The notes below the pieces were generated by a model that saw nothing but the letters and a program-made list of their open reading frames with translations, had not been told where the DNA came from and did no database searches. This document shows, one piece after another, positions 11,901 through 54,007 of a stretch of DNA of 64,000 nucleotides. The position numbers and the translations under genes were made by a program. The stretch is from Naegleria gruberi (taxonomy: Eukaryota), in the NCBI GenBank assembly GCA_000004985.1, contig GG738854.1; one strand, written 5' to 3'. Within the stretch, counting starts at the first letter, position 1; the number at the start of each line of letters is the position of its first letter.

Positions 11901-12993
11901 CAATCAAAGCCTAATGAGCTCAGAATTTATTCATGAGTGTTTGATACCTTATTTAGGCACTATCTTGAAAAAACCAGAAAGTATACCTTTTGTAGATCTA
12001 TTTTTGAAGAGAATTACAGAAAGATCACAACTTTTGTACATTAGAGACCAAGCACAAAGAACTATCAATTTAACTTTTGATAACTTTTCTTCCAGTGCTA
12101 ACGAACCAAACTTTTTAGTTATTTCAAGCTTCCAACTTTCTATTCAATTAACATTGATCGAGTTTGATTTATTCAGTATGATGGAACCTTATGAATTTTA
12201 CTCCAGTTATTGGCTATCAAAGAATCGTTTCAAGGTAAAAACACGAGATCCTTCAGCAAACCTTTCTCTCTTTATCAACTTTTACAATACTGTATCATTG
12301 TGGGTTACTGAAACTATCTTGTCCTATTCTGATATCAAAGATAGACACAAAGCCCTTTGTAGATTTATTTCATTGGCTTGGGGATGTTACTCTGTAAGAA
12401 ACTATAATGGATGTTTTGAAATTATCAGTGGTTTATATTCCAATGAAGTTTATAGACTTAGCAAGACATGGTCCATGTTGAGTGAAGAATATTTGAAACG
12501 AGCTCAAACCCTTATTGATCTGACAAGTGTTGCCAACAATTACAGAAACTACAGAGAAGAATTAAAGACAGCAAAGAAACCATGCATTCCAAATATTGCT
12601 GTTCACTTGAAAGATTTAGCAGCAGTTGATGATTCTCAGGAAGATGAAAGAAAATTAACAGAAGAAGAAATGAGACTTTTGGCAGAAAATGATGAATTTT
12701 GCCAACAAGTATTCATCGGAAGAACTCTTGATGAAGATATTGAATACAACTTTAGCAAGAGAAGACTCCAATCAACTTTAATCTGTCAATTATTAAGATA
12801 TCAAAAGACTTCCTATCCATTCAAAGCCAACGATACTCTCAAACATTTCATATGGCGTAATTTACTTCGCATCAATGAAGACATCAGAAGACAAATGGAA
12901 GATAAAAAGATTACCATTGAAAAGTACATCCAAGAGAGAAAGAGACAATTCCTAGTCAAATCCAAACAACTCGAACCAAAATCTACAAGATGA
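8938..12993 (+). CDS. Ras guanine-nucleotide exchange factor (Cdc25-type RasGEF), 1351 aa, with a long S/T/N-rich N-terminal low-complexity region
   Basis: RasGEF catalytic-domain motifs are present: LIEFDLFSMMEPYEFY, RFISLAWGCYSVRNYNGCFEIISGL and CIPNIAVHLKDLAAVDD. A RasGEF N-terminal-like region lies upstream. Continuous ORF. Confidence 0.8.
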   Translation: MKTVTSNKRGLMKRTATFHNNNSSPTTTTPNTLDSSTTPTTPSNDSQSGRESSGSKIVKRVVKRQITNNSTTTNNNPSNSTSLLSSSLQQGSSSTIPIGGSVNSNHHHDNSTSSSPPSAISRSWHHSRKTKLSSSSNIVGSVGNNGEFSPSSPTISSSFNNNSFSPNYNNNNSPSSSLPHSNSFQSKLSFKKSNTIKNKASPTNGVDQQQSSSTSIGGGNGRITSPGFYREGDLDEGDVLFARKTEGSERSSNAQSSDTNDEGTTDDDEENGGRRAQDQSEGSWDRSAPFRVHQDSSSTRKKTNYQPPALLNRKIIPPSELYGASLAASIMDNSSLMNASVGSMEGKMVEEAVESDPESFSSGEESSYSHNNFTEELSNSQLQQLSMKHSPSSPILASSPRTLDIPLNSPLSSSPMQKIAMTHSKSSSDINTARSNQHTKGMYYRMMTGGNHTQRKKQYRKLVTKKNIFGLPVTFSKPAPVTTTDYQDEEYVKEMTTTKDKNKKPVVNSQLKKIDDSQDKLEDVQDKLALFHKIQYAPEDMPLSPGRSFLDTTPRKIEKPEKKDDKKQKQEVQTPTTPKPTNAPTVKKHFYKVNTGTCTSIPSTVPLNTDNIDKKQFELVYWSTYKDLAEDEYLIEKFFVSNFSAMDLLYKLFYNNPDDTNRKRKFKELYNGHLITEQMEQLRDIFKQVSKIRMCTLVKKRDERLENNQKLHEEKIMQDYDSSSSDDDVDLVINEKGEIDNVFSMKNLMNNFDQNILAEINKTSKTSRNQRNITINSETLTSEISKSSHLTLKDLENEERFNISAKITGDTKIEFYTIRNWLTKILACSITRKKREMSTILPIQPREEREERIESFSASPVTATLLNIASERNEWANEETYTYTNTNTNTNTNTDSDYSDPNHLQRWKRKSVLRKGPLENNTPKLEMQPTELLDYMMALSCSASTLFDTLDEWEVRIHALFAFLETLTLQTPHQINCILVFLGDLILYNQSLMSSEFIHECLIPYLGTILKKPESIPFVDLFLKRITERSQLLYIRDQAQRTINLTFDNFSSSANEPNFLVISSFQLSIQLTLIEFDLFSMMEPYEFYSSYWLSKNRFKVKTRDPSANLSLFINFYNTVSLWVTETILSYSDIKDRHKALCRFISLAWGCYSVRNYNGCFEIISGLYSNEVYRLSKTWSMLSEEYLKRAQTLIDLTSVANNYRNYREELKTAKKPCIPNIAVHLKDLAAVDDSQEDERKLTEEEMRLLAENDEFCQQVFIGRTLDEDIEYNFSKRRLQSTLICQLLRYQKTSYPFKANDTLKHFIWRNLLRINEDIRRQMEDKKITIEKYIQERKRQFLVKSKQLEPKSTR
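11583..11625 (+). repeat. Coding microsatellite (ACN-AAY)n encoding TNTNTNTNTN inside the RasGEF gene
   Basis: Imperfect hexanucleotide repeat accaacaccaataccaatactaacactaatact. Confidence 0.7.
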
Positions 12994-16967: not shown

Positions 16968-19900
16968 TTAGTTGTTGGTAATCTTAATATTGACTGTTGA
17001 AGATTCAGTTAGCATATCACAACTTCCAGAACCAAGTGGAGTGAGATAGTACTTGCCTGCATCATATAAGGCACTCATGGCAGAAACAACTTCAGAACCA
17101 GAAATCTCACATTCATAAACTTCATTGCTAAGTGCAAGAGTTGGAAGGGAGGTAGCATACTTGGAGGTTCTAATTTGAACATCAATTAAAGTTTCTTGAT
17201 AAGTCATACCATACTTGTAGAGAGAGTGAACTCCAGAATCAGTGGTGTGATAATAGAGACTCTTAATCTTGTTAGTATCAGCAGAATTGAGGTCACAAGC
17301 AGTAATGGTAGAATTATCACCAGAGAGAGAAAGCTTGAAGAGACCTTGTTCCAATTTTTCATTCAAAGAAACCTTCAAAGTTAAAGTAGTGTAATTGTAA
17401 TTATCATCAAAGGTATTTACAACATTGAAAATATCCAATTGCTTCAAGTGGAGATGGTATGAAGTGTACTTGCTTGAAGTAGTACCGCTCCACATAACAA
17501 ATTCACATTTGTAAGTTGAGCATGATTCTCTGTGGAAAGCAATTGATGAATCCATACCATAATAACTCTTGTAAGTGGACAAGACTGAACGAACACTGAT
17601 ACCATCGAATGATTGCATTGTGATTGATGAAAGTGAGTTGGCAAGATCAAAGGTGACAGATTTACCAGCAACACCATCAATTGACAAAGCAGTAGTAACA
17701 TCGGTGCTTTGAGCTGTAATGGCAGCACCTCCAATCTTTGTGTTTTGAGCGTATTTGATCTTTCTTGGAGTAGTTGAAGTGAAACCACTTGAAGCAATGG
17801 CAATAATGATAACAAGAGCCAAAGCAAGACCATTAACAATCAAAACCTTACCAAAGTTAGCAGCACGATGCATTGATGGCATGTATGAGATAGTCATTAA
17901 GAAAATAATCAAACCAATTGCAGAACCAATCATGGCACCACTAACTGGATAATTAGCACGTGACATTAATGGAATAAGCATGTGTGAGAATCTATCAAGA
18001 ATATCAATTGTGACAGTCAATGGTGGCCAACTGGCAATAGCCATGAAAATGAACCAATACAATTGATGGTAGTGAAGGGCATGGAAGAAATCTTTCCATG
18101 TGAATGATGAAAGTTGTGAAGCAATTTCATGTCTCAAATTTCTCTTCTTAGCCAACTTGTTAAGATAAGAGCTGTCATCCTTTGACAATTCGTCTTCCTT
18201 CTTCTTTCTTCTAAGTTCCAAGAACTTCTTTCTCTTATTAACATCATCACCAGCTTCAGTCAATTCTTCAGTCATGGTAGCACCCATAGCTTCTAATGCC
18301 TTAGCACGAGTCTTATTTCTTACAATCAAATAGGTCCACATAATAACACGATCCAAAACCAATAAAATGATGAGCATACCACTCAAACAGAAAGACCAGA
18401 AATAGACAATGTAGAATGACTTCAATTGAGTACACAATGAAGCAGCTGTCAATAAACCCCAGAAGAATGTAAGAGCAAGATATCTTTCCTTATCAATAGC
18501 ATAAACCAAAGTTTGAGCAGCAGTATTTTCACCAGCCTTCAATTCACTCTTATCCTTCATTGAAACTCTGTACATTTTGAAACAACCACAACCTGAAATG
18601 ACAGCATTACCAATGACGTGAACACCGTATTGAGCTAAAAACATACCCAACAAGGTTGGTAAAGCAAATAAAAAGATAGCCAACACTGGATCTCTATACC
18701 ATGGCATGTGTTGAATACCATCCACTATGGCACCCAGAACTGCCGCAAATAAAATACCAAAACCAAGAGACAATACATAACCACCCAAATAGAGAACCAA
18801 ATATAATAAACGAGCTTGCAAACCAGTAGTACTCTTCTTAAATAATTGATAAACAGATGAAGTATCATGATAACGAAGTGAAATCATGTGATCAATGATA
18901 ACCAAAACAATAGGTAAAACCAAATCAACAACTACAATGATACCTTGAATAGCTTGACTCCATCCAAAACTCAAATTAATTGTAAAACCACCCAAAATAT
19001 CAAAATAAACAATATCAGCATCATAATTAGCTTCATATTCAGTATTGGATTCTTCCATAATCTTTTCATTTCTGGTAACTGAAAGAATTTGAGCCAAAAC
19101 ATTGTCACCCAAATGTTGTAAAGTCTTTTCACCAACAACGTCATATGTATCAAACTTGGTTCCATAATAATAACCATCCCAATAGTATGCATAATCCATA
19201 CCCTTCAAATAAAACTTTGGTAAAGTAGTATTACGATAATCTCTACTAGAAAAGACATCATAATCATTAGTATAGGTAGTTAATCTACTTAATTCATAAC
19301 CAATTACTGAAATATATGGATGAACATTACCATATTCACCAATAATTGATTGATCTGTCATTCTAGAAACCATTGCCTTTCCACCACTTCCTACAGAATC
19401 TAAATTAACAAAACGAAGACACTTCTTTGACCATTGATGATTTTTCATAAAGGCAACAGTTGCTTCTGGAGTTGATTGAGTACTTCCACCACCAAAGAAG
19501 AAAACAACTGGATAAGTAGGTCCAGTAGTTGTGTCCTGACTAATCAAATTGTAAATCAATTCTAACATGGTTGCAACTCCAGAGGCAGCACTTGATGCAC
19601 CAGCACTAAATTCCACTGAATCATAATGTGAGGCAACAAGGAATGAATGCATATCATCAACATTTTGTGTTGTTGTTTTAGGAGTGACACGAACAAGGAC
19701 ATTACTAAATTGGTGATAATCTTGTTTTTGAACTTCTAAACCATAACTTCCAGTTGTTTTCTATTTTTTCAAATTCAAATTCAAAATCATCATCATTATA
19801 TGATTTGCAACAATATTTTTGTATTATTAGTATTAACAGTTAATAATATTTTGTAAACAATGTTGTATTAACATTTTACAATTATTACAACAACAATAAC

Positions 19901-29602: not shown

Positions 29603-30997
29603 TTATTTCTTCTTCAAACCTTCAGAGAAAGCATTGACCATGGCAACCTTCTTCTTGTTATGATAAGTTTGTTGAGTTGAACTGCTTTCAGCAGCAGAAG
29701 ATCTTTGTTGCATGTTAGCAGACCAATAGTTATTCATCATCTTACTACCAACATTTGAATAGACAGTTCTGTCAACCATATTATTGTTACAATCATTCAA
29801 ATCCTTAATTAAACCTAAACAGAATTCATCATTGGCACTAACAGAAGCCTTAACCTTTTCAATAGCTTGAGTTAACAAATTTCTTGCTTGTTCTAACTTG
29901 TTTTGATCAGCCAAATTCTTAGCTTGTTCCAAAGCTTCACCAGATTCAACTCTGTTTCTTTGTACATCCAATTGATAATTGGCATCCTTCTTATTTGGTT
30001 CAACAGTTGTATTTCTATGAATGATAATTTCAAATCCAACTGCTTCATTTTCAGTATCTACAATATTGAAATAGAAGAGTGAAACCTTTGCAAGTTCTTG
30101 ATCAAGGAGTGGACCATTGAGAGCAGGAACTGATAACACAAAGACAACATCCTTCTTTTCCTCGGAATAAATATCACCAACATTAACCTCGCATCCTAAA
30201 CCATTTGGTAAATCTTCTTTTCTATAAGTTGTGAAAACCTTCTTCAATTTAACATTAGCATTTGGTTCAATTTTAACTTTGATATTTTGACCAACAACTG
30301 AAATCAAACCACCAATAACGTTACCAAATGCCTTTGGAATGTCATCAGTTGTTTGAAGGAAGTAATATAAACCATTACCAGCTTGAGAAATTGAAGTTAA
30401 CATATTAGCATCTGTATCAGTACCAAATCCAAATGTGAAAACTGTCAGGTTAGTTCTAATTTCTTCATGAATCATTGTTGTCATCTTTTTAACAATTTCA
30501 TTAGTATTTGTAATACCTTCATTAGCTAAACCATCAGTAAATAATAGAAGAGAAGTAACTTCATTGGCATTTGTTCTTTGACCAATAAGTCTCAAACCTT
30601 CAAATAAAGCACCAGATAAATTTGTACAACTTCCTGCTCTGATATTGGAAACAACTTGTTTGGCCTTTGATCTACCACTTTCGTTCATATTAGTAAATTG
30701 AAGGCTAGTTGAAATATTACTATCAAATTCAACGAGAGCAATTCTATCGGTTGGCTTTAATTGATCAAACATGAATGCTAATGTTGATTTGACCATTTCA
30801 ATTTTACTGCCTGCCATTGATCCTGATTTGTCAACTACACAAATAAGATCAATTCCCTTTCTTTCTTTTCTTTCATCGGCTTCAAATTCTGGAGCCTGTA
30901 ACGTTGCCATACAATATAAATCTGTTTCCTTTTGATATGGTAAATTGATGTATTCACAATTACCAGTAAAGACAATTTTAGTATTGGAAGAAGACAT
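29603..30997 (-). CDS. von Willebrand factor A (vWA) domain protein
   Basis: MIDAS motif DKSGSM within LICVVDKSGSMAGSKIEMVKSTL. A vWA fold and a coiled C-terminal region follow. Confidence 0.7.
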   Translation of the reverse strand: MSSSNTKIVFTGNCEYINLPYQKETDLYCMATLQAPEFEADERKERKGIDLICVVDKSGSMAGSKIEMVKSTLAFMFDQLKPTDRIALVEFDSNISTSLQFTNMNESGRSKAKQVVSNIRAGSCTNLSGALFEGLRLIGQRTNANEVTSLLLFTDGLANEGITNTNEIVKKMTTMIHEEIRTNLTVFTFGFGTDTDANMLTSISQAGNGLYYFLQTTDDIPKAFGNVIGGLISVVGQNIKVKIEPNANVKLKKVFTTYRKEDLPNGLGCEVNVGDIYSEEKKDVVFVLSVPALNGPLLDQELAKVSLFYFNIVDTENEAVGFEIIIHRNTTVEPNKKDANYQLDVQRNRVESGEALEQAKNLADQNKLEQARNLLTQAIEKVKASVSANDEFCLGLIKDLNDCNNNMVDRTVYSNVGSKMMNNYWSANMQQRSSAAESSSTQQTYHNKKKVAMVNAFSEGLKKK

Positions 30998-31855: not shown

Positions 31856-34800
31856 ATGAAACAACTCTTCATCTCGTTGCTTCTATTAATTATTGTTGAC
31901 TTTTCACATAGTTATCCTCCTTCAATCACAACACAATCATCTCTGCCTCCCACATCGCCATCATCATCAGGATTTAATTTGATTCTTTATGTTCAACCTG
32001 GAAATACAGTAAATAGTAAATTGACCAATAGTACTTTCTGTACTTTTAAAGAGTCACCATGCACTTCCATTCAACAAGCCATCGATCAGGTACTGGAAAT
32101 GTACTATGATAAGAAAATAATTGAACAGCCAAGTGCTCGTTTCATTCTAATGCCCAATCTCTCTGCAGGCCATCATCCATCGAAAAGACTCATCTATGGA
32201 AAGGATCAGTGTGATAACTCTTTCAATAGATGGTTTTACTACTTATTACTTGAATCACATTCGAATGAAGAAATAATTGAATTTCAATGTGAGGGAGAAA
32301 GTCTTGTCAACCCTCAAATGTTTTTTGGATTGTACTTGATGAGACTCAAGTTGAGGAATACCTTATTGCGTATTGATGAACGCATTGTTGTCTTGTACAT
32401 GTATGGAGTACATGCCACAAATTCTAGAATTGGATTTACTAGAAAGGGAGATGATGTCATTATGAAATATTCACTCCTTTACAGTTATTTTGGAGATGGG
32501 GATATTCAATTGGAGGCAAGTGATATTAATATTAATGGATCTATTGTTGAGCGAGTTACAATGTACTCGACCAGTAAGACCAGTATGAACATTACCCACT
32601 CAAGGATCACACAATTCAAGTTTACCTCATCATCTGGTGGGGAATTTTCTAATTTTGATATTTTAATTTCCTTTTCGAAACTTAATAATACTGAATGGTA
32701 TATTAGTAACTTTGGAAATGTGCAGTTGGATCAAATTGATATTTTCAATGATTTTCAAATCTCAATATTTTACACTAGCTCTATTTCTATTAGTCAACTA
32801 TACACGAGAGGGAACAATGTACGATTTTATGCAATCTTTGTGGGGATTAGTGGTGGTATCCAAATTGAAAAATCATACTTTAATTCACTCACAAATTTTG
32901 GAAATTCGAAAAACATATTTGACATTACTGCTACACCTATTTTAAATATCGAAAACTCTGTATTTTCCAACAGTAATCCATTATTTGGCGTGGCTGTTTG
33001 CGGTGAATTGAGGGGATACAATTTACAATTTATTGGAAACAAGGGTCCTTGCATATATTCTGATCTTGATAAAGGATTGGGTGTGAGCAGTGTTTCTATT
33101 TCACAATCAAAATTCATCAACAATTCATGTAGTGATTGTTCTGGAGGAGCTCTATTCTTGAGAGGTGTTGGATTTTTGGGTTTAGATTCCTCTTTTGTGG
33201 GAAATACTGCTACCAATGGAGGAGCATGTTACATTTCGGCCAGCTCAATAGGATTGAGCCAAGCCCAATTCATGGACAATAGAGCAACATTGAAAGGAGG
33301 AGCTTTTTATGTTGAATTTGTGGATAGTGGTTCCATGAATGGGGCATTTAACTTTGAATGTATCAATAACGTAGCTCAATACTCTGGAGGTTGTTACTAT
33401 TCTACTAACAGGACCTTAACATTTGAATTAATTGATCCAATTTTGGAAAGAAACCGTGCAAACTCCTATGGTGAAACATTTGGATACCCATTTTTTGATT
33501 TGAACTATCTCATTACCGTAACATATGGAAACGGAACAATATATACAGGTGTTTCTAACTCTTTTCCAGAACTTTCATTATATGCAGGTCAAATTATTTC
33601 AACCATTGAAATTACATTGTGGAACAATCGAACAGATCGAGTATCCTATTTGGAGTTGCCAATGGAGATTGAAGTGAACACGTCTCTTGTATTGCTCAAT
33701 TATGAACAAAAGAAAAACCCCTTCAATTCGACAATAACAATTGAGAATATCTATTTCACTCAAATGGCTGTGCTTCCTTCTCTCCAAAATTTCTTCACTT
33801 TACAGATGAAGATTGAGAATTTCAATCTCACAGCAATGGTCACTGTGCTGGATTGCCCTCACGGCTTATCTCTAGTCCAAAGTGTTGCACAAATTGGTAC
33901 TCTTACCTGTATTTTGAATCCAACAATACCTTATCAAATCATTATACCAGTCGTTTCAGTTGTTACACTGATTATTGTTGGAATTATTGCATTTTGTACT
34001 TTTTTCATTATTAGAATGACTCTTGTCATCGTAAGAAAACTTAAATTACTCAATAGAAAACTGGAAGCTGAAAAGAAAATGGAATCCAAACTATTACAAA
34101 AGCGAGTTGCCCTCATGGATGATGACAATGATGAGATGAATGAAAAATCATCACTTTTAATCAACTCAAATGGTGAAAGCAGCAATAACTACCATTCCCT
34201 GATGGATCATTCTTCCTCATGGATCATATCTATTGATGACATTGAGATTTTGAAAAAGATTGCTGAAGGAGCAAGTGGTTGCATTTATCTTTGTGATTGG
34301 AAGGGCACTAAGGTAGCTCTTAAAACACTTAAAAATCAAATGGAAGTCGATAATGATATCCTTTTTGAACGGGAAGCAGCATTGCTCTCAACACTTAGAC
34401 ATCCCAATATTGTTCAATTTTTTGGTATCATATTTTGTTCTAGGAAATACATAGCTGTAGAATATTTGGAAAAGGGAAGTTTGGACAAGTTGATTTATGA
34501 TTCAAAAACTGGACAGGCCAAGTTGAATTTTACAAAAAAAATTGAGATTCTTTATGGGGTTGCAAAAGGAATGGCCTATCTACACACCATGAAACCAAAA
34601 CCAATCATACACAGAGACTTGAAACCTGGAAATATTTTAATAGACATCAACTTGACACCAAAGATTTGTGATTTTGGATTGAGTAGAGTTTGGAACAATT
34701 CATTTTCCAACCAATCAGCCCCAACCATGAATGTTGGAACTTTTTTCTACCTTGCCAATGTATGTTATTTCTATTTTATCACATTCTGATTATTAACATT

Positions 34801-35241
34801 TTCGTTTAGGAAATGATATCTGGAGATCAATATAACCACAAGGTAGATGTTTACAGTTTTGGAATAATAATGTGGGAATTGTTTTTTGAGGAGAGCCCTT
34901 ATATTAATCAACATTCTCCCAAGCTCTTTAAATATGGAGAGGCGAGAGATGATGATATTTCACACTTGGGTTTCAATGCATTAGGAAAGGTATTGAGCGG
35001 GGAGAGACCTACCATTCCATTCCATGATAAATCTTCAGTCAAATTATGGATTGCTGATTTCCTATTGGAACACCAATCAAATAATGACAAAATATTGGAT
35101 GCCACTACTAATGCAGTTATTCAGTATGTTGACTTGATGAAACAATGTTGGAGTGGAACTCCATCTGAAAGACCAGAATTTACAGAAATCACATTGAGTT
35201 TGTCAAATTTGTTGGATCAAGTTAGTGAATTCAAGATATAA
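31856..35241 (+). CDS. Receptor-like kinase: signal peptide, extracellular right-handed beta-helix (pectin-lyase / polymorphic-membrane-protein-like) repeat domain, single TM helix and a cytoplasmic TKL-like protein kinase
   Basis: Signal peptide MKQLFISLLLLIIVDFSHS. The extracellular domain carries repeated GGA[LI]/NxxxxGGA beta-helix motifs. TM helix IIIPVVSVVTLIIVGIIAFCTFFII. Kinase motifs are GASGCIYLC...VALK, HRDLKPGNILID and DFGLSRV. The intron at 34760..34809 (GTATGT donor, TAG acceptor) joins FYLAN to EMISG...VDVYSFGIIMWE. Confidence 0.75.
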
Positions 35242-41619: not shown

Positions 41620-44600
41620 ATGACATGGCCAACAACACAACAACAAACATGGAAACAACAAGGCTACATTGCATGTTGTATCATTCTTGTGTTATTGTGT
41701 TCAACATGGCATGTAAATTCTTCAATTCAAGGACCTGTCAATTACTTTGTCAAGACAATTGAAGGCAATACATTTAATTTAGATACAGTGGAAGCAAAGT
41801 ATGCATACATGTTATCTCCATCAGGATTAAGTCTTGGACTAGATGATGATTTATTTGTTTCAGATATTGATAGACATTTAGTTTTTAGAATTTATGATAA
41901 TTTATCAACTGCTGAAGTTTATGCAGGTTTTGGAACTAGTGGATTTAATGGAGATGGTTTGTCAGCAATTGATACATTGTTTAATACACCTACAGCTATA
42001 TCAGTCAATCCACTAAATGGTGATTTGTATATTGCTGATACACTCAATAATAAGATTAGGATAGTTTCGAAAAACTCTAAAATAGTTTCATCAATTTCGC
42101 AGAGCACATTTAACAAACCGAGAGGAATTCATGTTTCTCCAAATGGATTTGTTTACATTGCTGATACTGAAAATAATTTAATTAAGAAATATGAAATTTC
42201 AACAAGACAAATTTCCATACTTGGTGGAGGTGGATATCTGAGTGGAGAATATAATGGAGTGGATGCAAAATTATTGAAATTACAATCACCAATGAATTTA
42301 TTTGTGGTTTCGAATGGAAAGAATGATATAGTTTATTTCACAGATGAAGAAAGAGTCAAGTCAATTGACGAAAATGGAATTTATAGAATGGTGGATGGTG
42401 GAATGCCTCAATCAAATTTGTAAGTTTGCTTCCAGCATGTGTTTACATTTATTCGAATTATTTCGTATAAAAATTAGATTTGGAATTTATGTTTCGGATC
42501 AAGGTGAAATATATACGTCATCACAAAAGAATCATTTCATTCAAATGAAATTAACAAAATCATCACAAACAAGTATTTTTATAGGAAGTTCTTCATCTGA
42601 AAGTGGATATAGTGGGGATAATCAGCAATTTAATTCACCCAACATCAAATTTTATGAACCATCTTCATTGGTTGTCACTCAAAATTCTATTCTAGTTGCA
42701 GATAAATCGAATAATTGTATTCGAAAGATTAATTTACAAGATATGATGGTTTCAACACTTGCAGGTGGACTTGTAAATCATGCAAATGGTGAAAATATTT
42801 CTCCGCTTAGTATGCATTCAATTGGAAATGCTCAATTTCCATTCAAGTATAAGAATGATTTGTATTTTGTGGAAAAAAACAATATTTTACGAAAGGTTTC
42901 GAATGGAAAGATGACAACTGTATTGGGATGTGAAAAATCACTAACTTATCCAGCAAACATTCCCCAACGTACCTTCGTTCTAATAATTTCATTATCTTAT
43001 GCTGGAAATGGAAATGTTATGTTTTTTGCAGGTCTAGAAAATTCACTTTACAATTTCAATCTGGATTCTCAAAACTTGACGCTTATCTCAAAACTTGATT
43101 ATTATACAACTTCATTTGCCTTAATTGGTGATTCAGTTCATAATGCAACAATTTATTATAGAACCGATTTGGGAAAAGTTTGTGTTTTTAAGAATTTAGA
43201 GGCAAATCCTTCATATTGTTTGTCCATTCCAGTAACAGGAGCTGTAGATCACATTATTGTGATTCCTGATTTTAGTTATAACGGAACAAATTCCATATTT
43301 TACTATTCAGATACTTATAATAGTATTAATGAATATATTGATTACAAGAATGGTTCAATGTCAACTCGCATAACACAATTGCCAACTGTTACATCATTTA
43401 GTGGATTTTCACACTATGATAGATATTTCTATTTTTGGAATATGGGACAAATTTATGAGATGCAAATGGACACTTACTCCATAAGAAAGTTTGCAGGAAT
43501 AGATGCCTTTAATGTTTCTAATACTTTAGTTTATGCCTTGGGTTACAATGGTGAAAATATACCTTTAAATAGTTCAGCTCTGTAAGTTTTTCATTCATGA
43601 ATAATTTCAAACATGGAAAGTTTTACACCAAGTACTACCAGAATAGGATCTGAAATATATGTCACCAGCCTTTATGGCATTAGTGAAATATCCAATGGAA
43701 GAATATTTACAATTGTTGGATTAACTCCAACCTCAAAAACGATAAGTCCACTCATCTTAATGAGAGATCCAATGAAAAAGATAATCTACTATATTGATCT
43801 TAGAACTTTAAAGCAATATGATGAGAATACAGGTATTTCAAAATCCTTGTCCACATCAATTTTCTCATCACCAGCCATTCCTTTCAATGATTCACCCTTT
43901 TTAATAATGAATACATATCCATTAAAACCGTTTGGACTATTCTCAACATTTGATAGGAAGATCTATTTTAAGGACAATTGTAGAATACTTCGAATTGATC
44001 CAGAAACATTGAATTTTGAAACTATTATTGGAAATTCTTGTTCAACTCTAGTTGCTGGAGTTAAGGTATGTTTTTGAGATTTACAATTTCTAAAATTGTT
44101 AGGGATTGGATTCAGGATGCCCTACGTTTCAAGAAATGAGTGGAATGACATTTGATCAGACCAATGGTGATATACTAATATCCTTAGAAAACTATAAGAT
44201 TTACAGATATAATTTACAAACACAAATGTTATCACTTGAATTTACATTTGCTACAAGTACTTCTTATTCTCCTGATGGCATAATAACTAATCAAACTTCT
44301 GTTGGGAAAATTACAAATATCCGACATCAAAATGGATATCTATATTTCAGTACAAGTGTTGCTATTAGAAGAATAGAAAAGTTATCTGATAATACATACT
44401 ATTTGAGAACTCTTGTTGGAAATTCAGAAAAAGGATATTCAGGAACCAATTTACCAGCACTTCAATCTTCTCTTGATACTCCTTCATCATTCTATGTGAA
44501 AAATAATGGTGATATTATAATTTTGGATGGTTCTGAAGCTTATTATGTCAGAATGTACCAGCAAAGAACTGGATTATTGATAGATATTGCAGGATCAAGA

Positions 44601-46062
44601 TCTATCTCTTCCAGATACAATGGAGATGGTTTTGTACCCTATCCAACCTTTTCATCTTTTTCAAAACAAGTTGATTTTGATGAAAGTAGTGGGGAAATTT
44701 TCCTTATTGATCTTAAATCCTATATACGTAAGATTACTCCAACTTGTAGTGGAAATTACACATTCAACATTATTAATACTACTTGTGATCTGTTAATTAG
44801 TTGTAATGGATCGATAGCAACAAGTGGATATGTTTGCAATGGTAATGGGGTCTGTTCTGATTTTGAAATCTGCCAATGTAATGATGGATTTGAAGGAAGA
44901 TATTGTGAAATTCAGAAAAGTCACCCATCAAGTGATTCTACAATTTTGATAGTCTCAATTGTAATTCCTATTATTGGATCAATATTATTGTTCACCGTTA
45001 TATTTGTGATTATTGTAATTTTAGTTTGTTTTTGCAGAAACAAAAAGAAGGAAAACTTTGAAATTGGTCAAATGGACACAAATAATATTGAGCTTTCAGA
45101 TAATACATTTCTTTCTACTAGTTCAAGAATAGTTTCATCCTCAGCCGGTTCCTCGGTAGAATCAGAGAATGATAGCCCATTTTCCAGATACTCAAATATT
45201 ACAAGAATAGGGCAAGGTGCTTTTGGAAGTGTTTTTAAAGTAACTGATACAAAGGATAGAAACAGACTGAAAGCAATCAAGCTTGTTAAATTTGAATCAT
45301 TGACTGATCTTAATACAATCATGAAAGAAGCTTCTCAATTGAGTTGTGTAAATCATCCAAACATTATCAAAATGAATGATTATTTCATCACCAATGACAA
45401 GTCGTTAATTATTGATATGGATTACTATGAAATGGGTGATTTGGCTCAGTTGAAACCAGAATATTGTACTGAGAAGCTTATCCAACAAATATTGAAGCAA
45501 TCACTAAGTGCTTTGAAATATGTACACGAGGAAATGAATATTATTCATAGGTATGTAATATTTCTCTCTTGCTTATTGAATTTAAATTTTGAAATAGAGA
45601 TATCAAACCAACCAATATTTTCATAAAGAAGTTGACTAGTGATAATATTGAGATTGTCTTGGCAGATTTTGGATTAGCCAAAAAGTATCAAGAGTCCAAA
45701 GGTCAATCATATGCTGGAACACCACTGTGTAAGTTTCAATAATTTTCATTTTCAACGAAATATGAAAAGTTATGAGTCCTGAAGTGGCTCTTGGTAGTTC
45801 ATACTCATTCAATACTGATATTTTCTCATTAGGAGTTTCCATATATCAAATTATGACGAATGATCGTGTAACTTCAATAAGCAACTTGTTGATGGGAAAT
45901 CAATCAGAAAATGCAACTAATATTTTAACGAATCAAATGAAAGAATCACCTAGTCAGGAATATTCTGATGAGTTGATTGAGATTGTTTTGAAAATGGTGG
46001 AAAAGGATTTGAATATTAGACCAAACGCCTCACAGTTACTTTCTCTCTCATATTTCAAATAA
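41620..46062 (+). CDS. Receptor-like Ser/Thr kinase: signal peptide, about 15 NHL repeats (six-bladed beta-propeller type), EGF-like module, single TM helix and a cytoplasmic protein kinase. Six exons.
   Basis: Exons span 41620..42419, 42478..43581, 43621..44065, 44103..45550, 45598..45728 and 45770..46062. All five introns (42420..42477, 43582..43620, 44066..44102, 45551..45597, 45729..45769) have GTAAGT or GTATGT donors and AG acceptors and are in frame. NHL units resemble SPRGIHVSPNGFVYIADTENNLIKK. The EGF-like module is CNGNGVCSDFEICQCNDGFEGRYCE. TM helix ILIVSIVIPIIGSILLFTVIFVIIVILVCF. Kinase motifs are IGQGAFGSVFK, AIK, HRDIKPTNIF, DFGLAK and GTPLFMSPE. Confidence 0.75.
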
Positions 46063-46860
46063 ATTGTCCAGCATTGAATATTTGGTAGAATTGAGTAAAT
46101 TTTCCCTTTGCACTCTAAAATAAATTCCTACATTATTAATACATTAAATTATTAAATTTGTAATTATTAAAGCTTTAATATATCTTTCATAAACAGGTAA
46201 GGCTTCAATGATCAACTTGTAGGAATGTAATGGTTTGGAATTGATCGGACTTTTTCAAAATTGTTGAAAATGTTGTATCTCCACTCCAAGAAAGATGTAT
46301 CGTCAAATATTAACCAAAGGCTGCTTTGCTTATTTTTTTTAAAAAATAAAATTGTAAACAATCTTAATTATTTAAATTCTAAATTAAGGACAAAATAAGA
46401 ACTCGTAATTTCTTCACTCACAATTCAATGTAATTAATCCACTTTGTAATACTGTAAAGTTTACAATAAGATTTTTCAAACCAATAAGTCCTTTAAAATT
46501 GAATGGTTTTTGTTATCCATTTCTTTATTGTGCTCATCTTTAGTTTCCCTATCACCCTCGCACTTTTTATTGGTCTTTCATTTTCATACATTCCATTCAT
46601 TACAATACTCAATTCAATACCAATTATCATTTCGCACTGTATTGTTATTTCTGCGACAATAAATTCTGGTTGAATCTTGACCATCCAATTTTACCATTGT
46701 TAGATTCTCTAAAAAAAACTGCAAAACAAAATCCAACACTAAATCGTGCCGTTACTTGTTTTTGATTACATATTTAAAAGAGAATTGTGTCGCTTCAAGC
46801 CTATACGAGAGACACTCATCAATTTTGAACAAGAAGGATATATAGTAGTAAAATTGTTCA

Positions 46861-47822
46861 TGAATAAGAATAATCAAAATGCGTCTTCTTCCTCTTCTGA
46901 TAAGAAGAAGAAGAATAAGAAGGATCCATCTTTTAAATTTGTGGATATGACTTCGGAATGGGAACCATGTATGTCAGGCATTAGAAAGGAAAAGAAATAT
47001 TTTCAATTGAGAAAACAATTAAAAACATGCGAAAACTTTCAGGATAATTACTTTGTCATTAGTATGCCAAAGAAGAGAAAAGGCTCTGGTGCAACTGATG
47101 AAGAAGATGATGAAGAACAACAACAAGATAACAATGTTGATAATAGTAATCAACAACAAATGCAATCATCAATGACACAATATGATCCATCACAACAAAT
47201 ACCTCCGAACATCAACACTAGTAATATGAATATTCCAATTATTAATACGAGAAATATTTTACGTTTTGATAATGCAACCCCAACAAGAAATCAATTCACT
47301 TTTGTTCCTCAACCTGTTAATCCTCCTGTAAAAACATTATCTAATGGTTTAGTTGAGTATAATAATGTAAAAATTAGTACGGCTTCAAATTTTGATTCTC
47401 AAAAGAAAAAGAAGAGAAAATCAAATCCTCAACAACCTCCTCAACATTCTAACATTCAAGAAAATCAACATGTACATAATAATCAACAATACCCTCCTAC
47501 AAATACACCACCACACTTTAATTCAGATTTTATTGGAAATGCATCAATTATTAGTGCTGACATTGTGAATGATGATTTTGAAAGATATCACAATTTGTCA
47601 AATGCTCAAGTTTTGGATGCTAGTTTCATTCCTTTCACTCCAATTGATAATATTTCAATGGGGTCAGTGAATATCACTGCTAACCCTTTACCAGAACTGG
47701 ATACGGTTTCGATTTCATTTTCTGAACCAATGTCCTTTAATGGTGATTTTAACTTTGAGGATTTACCTGACTTGGAATTATTTGGAAATGTGGAAATTAA
47801 CGTTTCATCTGGATCTCGGTGA
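46861..47822 (+). CDS. Hypothetical Q/N/S-rich, probably nuclear, protein with basic KKRK-like patches
   Basis: Continuous ORF. Open upstream to 46746. Low-complexity polyQ/N stretches. No recognisable domain. Confidence 0.35.
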
Positions 47823-50251: not shown

Positions 50252-53200
50252 TCATTCCTCATCAAACTCTAAAGTGCAAGATGGTACAACTTCAGTTGGA
50301 GTAATAAATTTGATAGTTTCAAGGAAATTGTGTAATTTGTCTAAATGTTGCTTTGCTTCGGAATGAGCATCTTGAATCATCGTAAATATTTCAATGGCTA
50401 TTGTACCATATTCCTTGTTATTGAGTTTGTAGCACAATTCTTCATAACAATTTCCATAATTAAATTTGATGATTGCATCCACTTGATGAATATTAACCAT
50501 TTTCAAATTTTCCAATGCAGAAGCATACTGCTGTGTAGCAATGAAACATTTTGCCATATTGATGTAGCTTTTAAAGAAGGTTGTTTTGGAGAAGTAATTG
50601 ATTGCTGCAGCATACTGACTCAATTCCAAATAGCAACATCCTAAATTGTAAAAGTAGCTTGGTGTGTCTTTTTCAAAATGAACTGCCTTCTTAAAGTTCT
50701 TTATGGCTAAATGATAGTCAATAGGGATACCAGGAAATCCTTGACTGTAGATAAGACCAATATTTGAGAAACCTGAACATTTCTCGTAATATTCAATTGC
50801 TTTCTTTCCCATTTTCATAGAAAAGGCAATGTCTGCAAAATTTCTATTGGACAAATTGTATTTCATTACCTCATCAAATATTAACTCAAATTGATGACTC
50901 TGAATTATTTGTTCTTCAATTGAGTGAGAAATAAGGGTAGATATATTGTTAGAATATTGGAAAATTGTTGAAATGTTTGGATGCTTTTGTAAATATATTT
51001 TCTTTGATATAAGTGAGTAATTGCTTTGGTGCATTCCTATTAAATATTGGACTGGTTCATAACTGTTTGTTAATATTTTTTCCAGTACTTGATCTGATGA
51101 AAATACCAATTTAGAATATTCTAATGCTTTTGAATTTCTTCCATTGATAAATAATACCCATACTAATTCTGAATAAAAGCACTTAATTGGTACATCAGTT
51201 TCATCTTGAGTATATTCTTGAAAGTTGAGCAAAAGATCATAAATTTCATTTGTTGATTTGTTGCTTATTTGCTTTAGACATGTATGAAAAACTTTCTTGT
51301 TTGGGTATGAAAGAAAAAGTGATCTTAGTAAATCTGTTTCTTTCCCTTCCCTAAGAAGTCGGATACATTCTATTGGAATGATTGATTCATCGAATTCATA
51401 ATGATCTTCCAAAGTGGAAACTAAAAATTGTTGAAAATCTATTAAATCTCTTTCAATACTATAACTAATAATCCTTTCAATAACTGGGACTGGATAGGAC
51501 ATTAAACAGGATTTACAAAGGCTCACAACTCTTTCATCGTCAATAATATTCATAGAAATAATTATTTCAAAATTTGTCAAATCAAACAAGTGCTTGCATC
51601 TTTCAAAAATGACTTTGGCCTTATTGCTATCGAAATTGAGTTTCACGTACAAATATTGGGCATACATATTAGTTTCCAAATGTTTTTCAATGACTGATAC
51701 CATATACTCAGGTATGTCATGTTCAGTAAGCCAAAGGAAAAAAAGAAGGAATTTCTCAGCTTCCTCATTACAATTCACAAGTTTCTCGTAATATTTCTTA
51801 CATTTGTTGAATTTTCCCAAGAAGAATAAGAATCTTGCCATTTGGATTGGTGTAATTTTGATTAAATCAAAATTATTATCATTAAAATTTCTGTTAACTA
51901 TTGATATCAATTTGTAATTTTTTTCAGGTGAGACAAAAGTATGAGAGAAATACTTTTTGAACAAGTCTTTACACTTTGGAAGGTTTGTTTTTGTGAGTGT
52001 GTACTCTGAAGGAAGAACAAAGCTCCAATCATATGATATTGAACTGCATAAGTGATCAGCAATGGGTTGCAGACAGTCTTGAAACTCTAATCTTGCACTT
52101 TTGACGAGAAACTTATACGACTCCTCTTGGTTGACATCTTTCAATAATATTGCCAACATACATGAAACTTCTCCGTATCGTTCAAAACTCTCATTCACTT
52201 TCCTCAACACCTTAATGGACTTTTCCTTGTCTAAATTTGAATAAATTTTACCAAGACTCAAGTTTGCCAAGTCGTCATTTTCTAGTAATAAATAGAACTG
52301 AATGGTTTTTTCTAAATTCTTTTCAAAAGAGTATAATCCATTTTCGTAAATTGATCCTAGAAAATAGATGGCCTCGTTATTTCTTCGCTTTGCTAAATCT
52401 AGTAACAGCTCTAAAGCCATGTCTTTCTTTGTGATATCTCCCTCAAGTATCGAGTATGCTAAAATAATTTTTGACTCTTCTTCAGTAAGGTCGTATTTGG
52501 AAAGGTATTCAATTGCTTTTGAATATTTTTTAAGGTGATAGCAGCAAATTCCCAGTAATTCCAATGATTTTGGAGATAACTTGGATAAAACTTTTTCAAA
52601 ATAAGTGTGAGCCATTTCAAAGCTCCCTGTTTTAAAGTAACAAATTGCAATTTCTTCACTGAATTGATTTGTTTCCAAATTTAACAGATTAAACTGTATG
52701 AAATTGGAAAGTGCATGTTCATAATTTGGAGGATTCATTTTGCTATAATATATAAATGCAATTCTATCATGTGACTTTGTGGATTTGTACTCACGAACAG
52801 CGTTTTCCCATTCCTTCTTTAATTCAAAAAGCTCCCCTCGCCTTTTTCTTGTTGTAGATGATTGTTTGAGAAGTTTGTTGATATAACAATATTTTTCAGG
52901 AATACTCTTCATTGAATCATTCGTGAAGTGATTATCAAAATAGTATTCAAGATTCGAAGAAAACACTAATCTCCTAACAGATAAGTATTCCAAATACATT
53001 CCATTCTCTAATTTAGGAAAATCAGCTCCGTTCTCTGAAATTATTGTGTTACAACTCATTTCAGTATTATGAATAAATGTTGATTTCACTTTCAGATATT
53101 TCAATTTTAAAGGTTCAGTAAAATGGAAATAGTTATTATTTTTTCCATCAATGGATAATATTCTTAATTTTTCATTTGTAAGTAATGTGAATTGTCCAGC

Positions 53201-54007
53201 ACTTGTTATCTTATTATCATCAATAATTAAAGTGTGAAAATTAATTGGAAGATTTGAAACATTTTCATTTCTAAATAGAACAGTACAATCATCTGAAAGA
53301 TAATTTGAAGTTACTGATAATGTTTCAAGTTTTGGGAAATTATTTCTATTGAGAATTAAATTAAAATTTCCATCACCTCTCAAGCGATTGTTATCTATAC
53401 AAATTGTTTTCAAATTTGATAAATGATTGGATTGAAATAAAAGTAAAGCATCAGCTCCACCCAAATTACATCTAATTAAATAAAGTGATTCCAATCTTGT
53501 GAAGGGAACATCTTTCATCAAATAACAATCAATTAAATCTTTGCCATATAAATTCATCACATTTTGAAACTTGGAATAAAATTTCAATAATTCTTGAGCT
53601 GGTGCGAATTCCACCATCACATTTGTAAAATCACAACAATAGCGAATATTATGTTGTTGTGATTTTAAAATCGGAATAAATTTACAATTTGATTCGGATA
53701 ACCATTTTGTCAAAATCAATCTATCCAAATATTTACAAACAAGCCTAATTTTTAATAATTTCCCAAGTGGTAGAAATAAAAGAATACTATGAAATAGTAC
53801 ATCATCAGGAATTAGATCTAGTATATTTACATATTCAAAAGTTTTTGTTTTCTTCGGAACAGGTGAAATTTCTTGTTCATCAAGTATACGTTTAGTTGCT
53901 TTACTTTTCTTTCGAAAATTGTTGGAATTATAGCTACTACCAATGGGGGAGTATGATTCCGATGATGAGGAATGATAACTCTCCTCACTTTCGCTATCAA
54001 AACCCAT
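50252..54007 (-). CDS. Large (1251 aa) F-box-like + leucine-rich-repeat + Sel1/TPR-like repeat protein
   Basis: N-terminal F-box-like LIPDDVLFHSILLFLPLGKLLKIRLVCKYLDRLILTKW. LRR units follow (LSNLKTICIDNNRL, LETLSVTSNYL, LRILSIDGKNN). The C-terminal half carries Sel1-like units (YFLGSIYENGLYSFEKNLEKTIQFY, IGLIYSQGFPGIPIDYHLAIKNFKKA) and TPR-like helices. Continuous ORF. Confidence 0.55.
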   Translation of the reverse strand: MGFDSESEESYHSSSSESYSPIGSSYNSNNFRKKSKATKRILDEQEISPVPKKTKTFEYVNILDLIPDDVLFHSILLFLPLGKLLKIRLVCKYLDRLILTKWLSESNCKFIPILKSQQHNIRYCCDFTNVMVEFAPAQELLKFYSKFQNVMNLYGKDLIDCYLMKDVPFTRLESLYLIRCNLGGADALLLFQSNHLSNLKTICIDNNRLRGDGNFNLILNRNNFPKLETLSVTSNYLSDDCTVLFRNENVSNLPINFHTLIIDDNKITSAGQFTLLTNEKLRILSIDGKNNNYFHFTEPLKLKYLKVKSTFIHNTEMSCNTIISENGADFPKLENGMYLEYLSVRRLVFSSNLEYYFDNHFTNDSMKSIPEKYCYINKLLKQSSTTRKRRGELFELKKEWENAVREYKSTKSHDRIAFIYYSKMNPPNYEHALSNFIQFNLLNLETNQFSEEIAICYFKTGSFEMAHTYFEKVLSKLSPKSLELLGICCYHLKKYSKAIEYLSKYDLTEEESKIILAYSILEGDITKKDMALELLLDLAKRRNNEAIYFLGSIYENGLYSFEKNLEKTIQFYLLLENDDLANLSLGKIYSNLDKEKSIKVLRKVNESFERYGEVSCMLAILLKDVNQEESYKFLVKSARLEFQDCLQPIADHLCSSISYDWSFVLPSEYTLTKTNLPKCKDLFKKYFSHTFVSPEKNYKLISIVNRNFNDNNFDLIKITPIQMARFLFFLGKFNKCKKYYEKLVNCNEEAEKFLLFFLWLTEHDIPEYMVSVIEKHLETNMYAQYLYVKLNFDSNKAKVIFERCKHLFDLTNFEIIISMNIIDDERVVSLCKSCLMSYPVPVIERIISYSIERDLIDFQQFLVSTLEDHYEFDESIIPIECIRLLREGKETDLLRSLFLSYPNKKVFHTCLKQISNKSTNEIYDLLLNFQEYTQDETDVPIKCFYSELVWVLFINGRNSKALEYSKLVFSSDQVLEKILTNSYEPVQYLIGMHQSNYSLISKKIYLQKHPNISTIFQYSNNISTLISHSIEEQIIQSHQFELIFDEVMKYNLSNRNFADIAFSMKMGKKAIEYYEKCSGFSNIGLIYSQGFPGIPIDYHLAIKNFKKAVHFEKDTPSYFYNLGCCYLELSQYAAAINYFSKTTFFKSYINMAKCFIATQQYASALENLKMVNIHQVDAIIKFNYGNCYEELCYKLNNKEYGTIAIEIFTMIQDAHSEAKQHLDKLHNFLETIKFITPTEVVPSCTLEFDEE

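Follow-up and report, generated by a model that had tools for sequence, protein, structure and literature searches.

Positions 41620 to 46062 (+) of a 64,000-nucleotide (nt) stretch of Naegleria gruberi contig GG738854.1, to which we refer as the window, raise the question of whether a single gene joins a large extracellular propeller to a cytosolic kinase and, if it does, whether its product serves as a receptor. An earlier sequence-only reading had proposed one polypeptide with a signal peptide, an NHL-repeat propeller, an EGF-like module, a single transmembrane (TM) helix, and a Ser/Thr kinase, encoded in a fungal-type genome. A six-exon gene model, Pfam matches, and hydropathy all predict the same plan. 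This architecture is kept in at least eight other N. gruberi proteins and in N. lovaniensis and N. fowleri. We consider it probable, at about three chances in four, that this N. gruberi locus gives rise to a functional receptor, a single-pass Ser/Thr kinase of type I. The gene is a new member, apparently under-annotated, of an uncharacterized Naegleria family of such kinases.

The host is not a fungus. A window open reading frame (ORF) at 1910-2746 is residue for residue the N. gruberi protein EFC47469.1, the protein EFC47476.1 from the same contig of 665,159 bp is a 100% match to the locus itself, and the closest named homologs all come from Naegleria, which identifies the genome as that of N. 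gruberi NEG-M (Discoba; Heterolobosea). Because the genome is N. gruberi, the argument that such receptors are rare in fungi is inapplicable, and the suggested role as a sensor in a symbiotic or early-diverging fungus is moot.

Four long and two shorter ORFs lie between 41620 and 46062 (+), separated by tiny gaps that all open with GTAAGT or GTATGT. Enumeration of GT..AG pairs produced a single consistent gene model of six exons and five introns, with the start ATG at 41620 and the stop TAA at 46060-46062, exactly the limits that had been proposed from sequence. The introns (58, 60, 37, 47, and 41 nt) are all GT..AG with GTAAGT or GTATGT donors and a GC content of 21 to 30%, and excision of each of the five takes out in-frame stops and restores the frame. 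The resulting 4.2-kb coding sequence, uninterrupted by a stop or frameshift, specifies an intact protein of 1399 amino acids (aa).

Exon 1 (41620..42419 (+), aa 1-266 plus 2 nt), whose ORF opens at the first ATG to follow a stop, encodes the start codon, the signal-peptide-like N terminus, and NHL blades 1 to 4. Intron 1 (42420..42477 (+), 58 nt, GTAAGT..TAG) leaves a junction, PQSNL/FGIY, that aligns without gaps to two N. gruberi paralogs, P0001 and P0002. Exon 2 (42478..43581 (+), aa 267-634) carries blades 5 to 11, including a divergent middle region. The only ambiguity in the model is the acceptor of intron 2 (43582..43641 (+), 60 nt, GTAAGT..CAG): positions 43620, 43632, and 43641 each keep the frame and differ by 0 to 7 aa, and 43641 aligns gap-free with P0002. 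Exon 3 (43642..44065 (+), aa 635-776 by the splice model) adds further propeller blades. The very short intron 3 (44066..44102 (+), 37 nt, GTATGT..TAG) creates the junction VK/GLD, conserved in P0001; the one other acceptor that keeps the frame (44159) would remove residues from the conserved GLD onward.

Exon 4 (44103..45550 (+), 1448 nt, aa 777-1258 plus 2 nt; underlying open frame, ORF 44106..45626) spans the last NHL blades, the EGF-like module, the TM helix, the juxtamembrane segment, and the kinase N-lobe as far as HR. Because NHL blades, EGF-like module, TM helix, and kinase N-lobe share this one open frame, the fusion of ectodomain and kinase is independent of splice prediction. Intron 4 (45551..45597 (+), 47 nt, GTATGT..TAG) splits H-R/D, and a public protein model at the locus, P0244, has the identical junction. 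By the splice model, exon 5 (45598..45728 (+), aa 1259-1302) contributes the catalytic loop, DFG, and activation segment. Intron 5 (45729..45769 (+), 41 nt, GTAAGT..AAG) splits GTPL/FMSPE, and exon 6 (45770..46062 (+), aa 1303-1399 plus the stop TAA), a 100% tblastn self-match, aligns with the C termini of P0002 and of two further paralogs, P0125 and P0126.

In alignment with P0001 and P0002, the junctions PQSNL/FGI, VK/GLD, IIHR/DIKPTN, and GTPL/FMSPE fall in gap-free conserved stretches. Intron conservation was judged from intron read-through in the protein models and ORFs of N. gruberi and environmental relatives. At the intron 4 site, the P0127 model reads into the intron ("IIHRYV.."); at the intron 5 site, the models of P0001, P0124, P0127, and P0128 do the same ("GTPLCK.." or "GTPFCK"). 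The window is AT-rich (GC, 0.30 to 0.36) and tightly filled with long, mostly uninterrupted ORFs, among which a six-exon gene with all of its introns within 37 to 60 nt is unusual.

The first 34 residues (41620..41721 (+), aa 1-34) form a predicted signal peptide, with K12, the h-region YIACCIILVLLCSTW, and the c-region HVNS; hydropathy peaks at aa 14-36 (1.68 on the Kyte-Doolittle scale). The hydrophobic core, aa 15-30, is moderate and weaker than the TM helix. The full-length paralogs P0246, P0248, and P0255 likewise open with a hydrophobic leader. From its hydropathy, we infer that the leader is signal-peptide-like.

An NHL-type beta-propeller ectodomain of about 930 aa follows (aa ~60-990; 41797..44744 (+), interrupted by introns 1 to 3). 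Searching the spliced protein against Pfam, as the sequence-only reading had advised, gave 73.5 bits for NHL (PF01436) against a cut-off of 20 (E = 7.6e-21, in three stretches) and 52.7 bits for TEN_NHL (PF25021) against a cut-off of 27.1 (E = 4e-14). Within exon 1 the NHL hidden Markov model (HMM) matched aa 66-92, 121-158, 164-203, and 221-254, and a repeat HMM derived exclusively from bacterial homologs (1,860 repeats) identified 12 units in the target. Another repeat HMM, iterative and self-trained, was dropped as a counter: it drifted and called a repeat inside the kinase domain.

Structure prediction extended these matches. The AlphaFold model of target exon 2 (aa 268-634; predicted local distance difference test [pLDDT], 68; predicted template modeling score, 0.62) contains seven four-stranded blades and shows blades even in a stretch where sequence methods detect little. 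The ectodomain of P0001, modeled from an 11-sequence alignment, is all-beta, with 63 strands in fours and two low-confidence gaps (mean pLDDT, 64); the part homologous to exon 3 is all-beta at pLDDT 80-92. In Foldseek searches, the best matches of the exon 2 model were the beta-propellers of LRP4/6, NHLRC2, and SOQ1, and the two ectodomain models together retrieved extracellular tandem-propeller proteins (BT4663, LRP2/4/6, ROS1/Sevenless, NHLRC2, SOQ1, and a teneurin-like protein). Sequence matches of the ectodomain in the PDB, at 1e-21 to 1e-7, were a teneurin-like protein, NHLRC2, TRIM NHL domains, and PknD (1rwi). Scores above the gathering cut-off together with models built of four-stranded blades place the ectodomain among NHL/six-bladed propellers. 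Four blades in exon 1, seven in exon 2, and about six in exons 3 and 4 give an estimated total of 17 to 18, which may be grouped, with moderate confidence, as about three six-bladed propellers. Pfam and AlphaFold bear out the propeller repeats of the sequence-only reading, and its count of about 15 gives way to this higher estimate.

Between the propeller and the membrane lies an EGF-like module (44802..44906 (+), aa 1010-1044) with the six-cysteine pattern C..C..C..CxC..C, all six cysteines being intact (C1010, C1021, C1027, C1033, C1035, and C1044). The EGF_Teneurin profile gave 18.6 bits (cut-off, 24.3; E = 2e-3), and paralogs exceed the Pfam cut-offs for EGF_2 or EGF_Teneurin.

Hydropathy reveals only two hydrophobic segments in the whole protein, aa 15-30 of the leader and the TM helix at aa 1056-1087 (44940..45035 (+); hydropathy maximum, 3.34). 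Because there are two such segments, RNKKK follows the TM helix, and 13 N-X-S/T sequons lie in between, in an ectodomain of about 1020 aa, type I topology is predicted. Hydropathy, the positive-inside flank, and the order of domains are those of a type I single-pass receptor kinase. The cytosolic juxtamembrane segment that would follow (45036..45188 (+), aa 1088-1138) contains a Ser-rich motif, IELSD...SS.G.S, of which I1105-D1109, S1122, S1123, G1125, and S1127 are invariant across three paralogs. This motif is reminiscent of the GS (glycine-serine) region of transforming growth factor beta (TGF-beta) type I receptors, and it may have a regulatory role.

The kinase domain (45189..46059 (+), aa 1139-1398, interrupted by introns 4 and 5) matches the full Pfam Pkinase profile (PF00069, 1-263/263) with 180.2 bits (cut-off, 31.7; E = 6.6e-53). 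Its motifs, GQGAFG at 1146, K1169, E1185, HRD at 1258-1260, K1262, N1265, DFG at 1282-1284, and SPE at 1305, are all invariant in the paralogs, and with HRDxKxxN and GTPxxxSPE it has the appearance of an active Ser/Thr kinase of the RD type. Comparison with solved structures did not assign it to a major kinase group. CAMK, STE20, and NEK members are about equidistant (~1e-26); Nek2 (3e-26) and Nek7 (6e-23) score no better than MYLK4, STK24/25 (7e-27), and the calcium-dependent protein kinases. No chain of the TKL/IRAK group or of a receptor tyrosine kinase appears among the 60 PDB matches listed for the kinase. We therefore dropped group placement by PDB matches.

Does this architecture recur? 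The spliced product comes closest to P0001 (52% identity) and P0002 (43%), which have an identical Pfam set, and the remaining matches are bacterial NHL proteins that align over the ectodomain only. In an HMMER search with exon 4, single stretches ran from NHL to kinase against P0245, P0246, P0248, P0255, and P0258. With P0001 and P0002 included, N. gruberi has at least eight other family members, so that the paralogs of like architecture that the sequence-only reading had asked about do exist, in N. lovaniensis and N. fowleri as well. Named members are D2VNU7, D2VCE7, D2VUG2, D2VPM5, D2VMZ5, and D2VK55 in N. gruberi; C9374_012036, C9374_002334, C9374_010785, and C9374_010803 in N. lovaniensis; and FDP41_013523 in N. 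fowleri. Pfam finds NHL, usually a teneurin-type EGF, and a kinase in them, and full-length members with intact N termini have a signal-peptide-like leader and one TM helix. The family spans all three Naegleria species with named matches, and every member is deposited as a hypothetical protein.

A phylogeny of the kinase domain, another step that had been proposed, recovered a lineage-specific Naegleria clade. In this neighbor-joining (NJ) tree, which was built without bootstrap and is descriptive, the family kinases form one clade with 49 to 83% identity to the target, compared with 27 to 34% for the outgroups, and the target adjoins P0125 and P0126. The order of its domains and the position of its kinase inside the clade make the target a member of the family. 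Its nearest kinases are N. gruberi paralogs and environmental sequences, which suggests a recent expansion. Outside Naegleria, the sole named relative in the kinase clade, found by word-indexed search, comes from Willaertia and bears ankyrin repeats in place of the ectodomain; the other kinase-bearing matches among the best 150 are environmental sequences or generic kinases.

Divergence within the family is uneven. Against P0001 and P0002 the target is 69 to 72% identical in the kinase, 54 to 69% in the first propeller, and 22 to 32% in the middle region (aa 431-640). Because this pattern is the one expected of a region that sets specificity, aa 431-640, the fastest diverging among paralogs, is the best candidate for determining ligand choice. 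Modules also appear to have been shuffled between ectodomains and kinases: P0295 (1399 aa, on an ENA contig) joins an RCC1-type propeller, a teneurin-type EGF, and a TM helix to a kinase of the same clade, and in P0314 of N. lovaniensis an NHL ectodomain is joined to a kinase of another, TKL-like type. Larger paralogs carry long arrays of teneurin-type EGF modules. An environmental relative (L001 3502-7962 (+), on the 26.7-kb contig NODE_78 of ENA ERZ2098899) has an intron-free ORF of 653 aa that encodes NHL, EGF, TM helix, and the kinase in full; upstream of it, the same strand of that contig holds four ORF pieces, the furthest two with faint NHL matches, which suggests that this relative shares the multiexon gene plan.

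The public record of the locus is slight. The sole model that we found, EFC47476.1/XP_002680220.1 (P0244, "predicted protein, partial"), covers 45183..45682 (+) and amounts to 151 aa, corresponding to model aa 1137-1287. It matches the kinase N-lobe and, in an exhaustive HMMER search, was 100% identical over exon 4 query positions 361-482. Three paralogs, P0125, P0126, and P0131, are deposited as kinase-only models of about 280 to 290 aa. P0125, like P0126, starts with MIISSS, which aligns to an internal juxtamembrane Met of the longer environmental homolog P0124, and for this reason both models look truncated. A word-indexed search with an EGF-TM-kinase query missed P0244, P0001, P0002, and most family members, all of which the exhaustive search found, and the library of representatives merges sequences at 50% identity. 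Since known relatives were missed, absences in word-indexed searches are not to be over-read, and the status of the locus as otherwise unannotated is soft. The reference annotation appears to cut the target to 151 aa and several paralogs to their kinases; because models appear truncated in this way, counts of the N. gruberi kinome and receptors are probably underestimates.

We propose the following course of action for the receptor. The leader would direct the protein to the endoplasmic reticulum, and at the cell surface the ectodomain would raise some three six-bladed propellers on its EGF stalk. A ligand or surface outside the cell would engage a propeller face and bring about an oligomeric or conformational change, upon which the kinases would trans-autophosphorylate their activation segments (in the S1292/S1296/T1300 region). 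The Ser-rich juxtamembrane motif might be phosphorylated too, and phosphorylation of cytosolic substrates would follow. Naegleria is a bacterivorous soil amoeba; the most plausible ligand classes are prey or environmental macromolecules and cell-surface cues.

Several points weigh against assigning the locus to a functional receptor kinase. The signal peptide and topology are called from hydropathy and the positive-inside pattern only. The blade count and three-propeller layout are estimates from models of moderate confidence (mean pLDDT, 64 and 68), one of a paralog and one of a fragment. The EGF_2 match in the target (aa 1017-1044; 20.8 bits; E = 5e-4) falls just short of its cut-off of 22.1. 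Ligand, oligomerization, and substrates are entirely inferred. In the literature we found no transcript, proteomic, or functional data for the locus or for any family member, and an exact look-up of the spliced protein in a collection of 15 billion proteins returned no entry. A literature search for papers on the family proteins or their locus tags, or on NHL proteins or receptor kinases of Naegleria, likewise found none.

How might the receptor be used, or the data otherwise be explained? A serious alternative to the sensing of soluble ligands is that it is a contact or adhesion receptor, whose NHL and EGF ectodomain binds a cell, a prey surface, or the substratum and whose kinase reports that contact in phagocytosis, adhesion, or cell-cell recognition. 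The best sequence match with a solved structure, a teneurin-like protein, points this way, as do the TEN_NHL and teneurin-type EGF matches in Pfam and the long EGF arrays of the larger paralogs. In the bacterial kinase PknD, moreover, adhesion to laminin and to brain endothelia is reportedly a function of the NHL sensor (PMC3322341). The target, however, has no YD shell or other teneurin hallmark, and the present evidence does not tell soluble from surface-bound ligands; we regard a contact role as possible, with the odds against it.

Another explanation could be that the locus is a silent or decaying recent duplicate that retains an intact frame and is not expressed. The 151-aa partial entry being the only public model found, the failure of searches to return a near-identical transcript-derived protein, and the proximity of N. 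gruberi paralogs and environmental sequences as nearest relatives, suggestive of recent expansion, would fit such a history. The coding sequence of 4.2 kb is nevertheless intact across five canonical introns, with catalytic residues and all six EGF cysteines kept, and missing matches are weak evidence when the word-indexed search overlooked known relatives. Silence of the gene is accordingly improbable in our judgment.

More unlikely still is a catalytic ectodomain, that is, a six-bladed-propeller lactonase, arylesterase, or lyase that would make the protein a membrane-anchored enzyme with a kinase tail. Bacterial homologs carry automatic names such as "sugar lactone lactonase YvrE" or SMP-30/gluconolactonase, and Pfam gives weak matches to Arylesterase (E = 0.009) and Vgb_lyase (E = 0.024), but these are far under the curated cut-offs and are the usual cross-matches among propeller families. 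The strong matches are to noncatalytic NHL and teneurin NHL propellers, and no metal-binding or catalytic motif was identified.

A division of the NHL exons and the kinase exons between two genes or mRNAs, the outcome that would have undone the sequence-only reading and that a kinase-only public fragment and the kinase-only models P0125 and P0126 might seem to favor, is scarcely credible, since the 1448-nt exon 4 is one open frame from NHL through EGF and TM helix into the kinase N-lobe, with no stop, start context, or intergenic gap separating the parts, since many paralogs and the intron-free environmental ORF have the same fusion, and since P0125 and P0126 look truncated.

A receptor Ser/Thr kinase with an NHL ectodomain has a bacterial counterpart. 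The arrangement, which the sequence-only reading took to be uncharacterized among fungal receptor classes, is characterized in Mycobacterium tuberculosis PknD, where the sensor forms a six-bladed propeller bearing a cup proposed to bind ligand (PMC3322341). PknD (PDB 1rwi/1rwl) shares with the target a Hanks-type Ser/Thr kinase, one TM helix, and an extracellular NHL propeller, and its sensor matches the target ectodomain in sequence (1rwi, E = 5.4e-7). It differs in being bacterial, with an N-terminal kinase inside and a single C-terminal propeller outside, and in lacking a signal peptide and EGF, whereas the target, predicted to be type I, has roughly threefold more propeller, an EGF stalk, a Naegleria-specific eukaryotic kinase, and spliceosomal introns. 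We rejected membership in the PknD-type bacterial Ser/Thr protein kinases: the domains of the target run in the opposite order, it comes from a eukaryote, and its kinase clusters with those of Naegleria only. The likeness is one of design.

Teneurins offer the closest modules. The Pfam models TEN_NHL, EGF_Teneurin, and EGF_TEN match the target and its paralogs, and the best PDB sequence match of the target is "Teneurin-like protein" (9ifo/9pt5, E = 1.8e-21). Pfam detected no YD/Rhs shell, FN-plug, or Tox-GHH/toxin-like C terminus in the target. Teneurins have type II topology and lack a kinase, whereas the target is predicted to be of type I orientation with a cytosolic kinase. Only the NHL and EGF modules being found, and in type I orientation, we did not class the target as a teneurin.

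The Sevenless/ROS1 receptor tyrosine kinases and LRP4/5/6 resemble the target in being type I proteins with several extracellular six-bladed propellers and an EGF after the propeller. Their propellers, however, belong to the YWTD/LDLR class, identity is about 10%, and TM-scores are 0.2 to 0.3, low values being expected for multidomain or fragment queries. ROS1/Sevenless kinases are tyrosine kinases, whereas the target has Ser/Thr-type motifs. As whole proteins, these receptors and the target are analogous, not homologous. The top Foldseek match of the whole-ectodomain model (E = 1e-19) was to the tandem periplasmic propellers of the Bacteroides sensors BT4663 and BT3049 (hybrid two-component) and BT4673 (one-component). 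There, as proposed here, tandem propellers sense a ligand outside the cytoplasm and are coupled through the membrane to a kinase; these sensors differ in being bacterial and in the histidine-kinase output of the hybrids, and their TM-scores are 0.22 to 0.27.

Among eukaryotes, single-pass transmembrane Ser/Thr/Tyr kinases and lineage-specific fusions of ectodomain and kinase are reported to be common in protists (PMC10463195). The target shares with protist and plant transmembrane kinases (TMKs), such as oomycete leucine-rich-repeat TMKs, amoebozoan TMKs, and the plant receptor-like kinase/Pelle group, the combination of a lineage-specific ectodomain with a conserved kinase (PMC10463195); that survey names neither Naegleria, Heterolobosea, nor NHL. 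Such fusions being common, the family brings no conceptual surprise, and its use lies in reannotation and in Naegleria sensory biology. The inventory of Naegleria environmental sensing in the pangenome paper (PMC9928731) covers G protein-coupled receptor signaling, membrane cyclases, and histidine kinases, and it gives receptor kinases no separate mention among its 265 predicted protein kinases. To these, our analysis adds a multigene family of receptor Ser/Thr kinases with large ectodomains, convergent with those of animals, plants, and mycobacteria. Among its genes for protection from phototoxicity, the same paper includes SOQ1 (n = 11) and RCC1/UVR8 (n = 18) (PMC9928731). Because SOQ1 contains an NHL domain, some "SOQ1" genes may be NHL propeller proteins, and some of these and of the "RCC1/UVR8" genes may be NHL or RCC1 propeller proteins that include receptor kinases.

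For the pathogen N. fowleri, the family member, with its surface-exposed propeller and its kinase, would be a candidate sensor or antigen. As a speculation, to which we give less credence than to the contact role above, a receptor-kinase system may have arisen independently in Naegleria, in which NHL and EGF modules of teneurin-like or bacterial-like type were combined with a lineage-specific kinase, modules were shuffled, and a hypervariable middle propeller came to provide specificity for prey, self, or host surfaces; the N. fowleri homolog might then take part in recognizing host cells or matrix, comparable to what has been proposed for the PknD NHL sensor in tuberculosis of the central nervous system.

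Elsewhere in the window, a second receptor-like kinase lies about 6 kb upstream of the target (31856-34759 and 34810-35241 (+); 1111 aa; one 50-nt GTATGT..TAG intron). It has a signal peptide, an ectodomain of about 680 aa with a weak Chlam_PMP (beta-helix-like) match, a single TM helix, and a kinase of TKL-like type (HRDLKPGN, CDFGLSR), and in the NJ tree it groups with P0314, the N. lovaniensis protein with an NHL ectodomain. The two window genes are not tandem duplicates: their kinases are 28% identical and of different types, and their ectodomains are unrelated. Other neighbors, which have no evident functional link to the target, encode a RasGEF-domain protein (8938-12993 (+), 1351 aa), an M28-peptidase-domain protein (16968-19652 (−)), a VWA-domain protein (29603-30997 (−)), and a TPR/ANAPC3-like protein (50252-54007 (−), 1251 aa). 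Directly downstream of the target is a Q/N/S-rich low-complexity ORF of 358 aa with poly-K and acidic runs (46746-47822 (+)).

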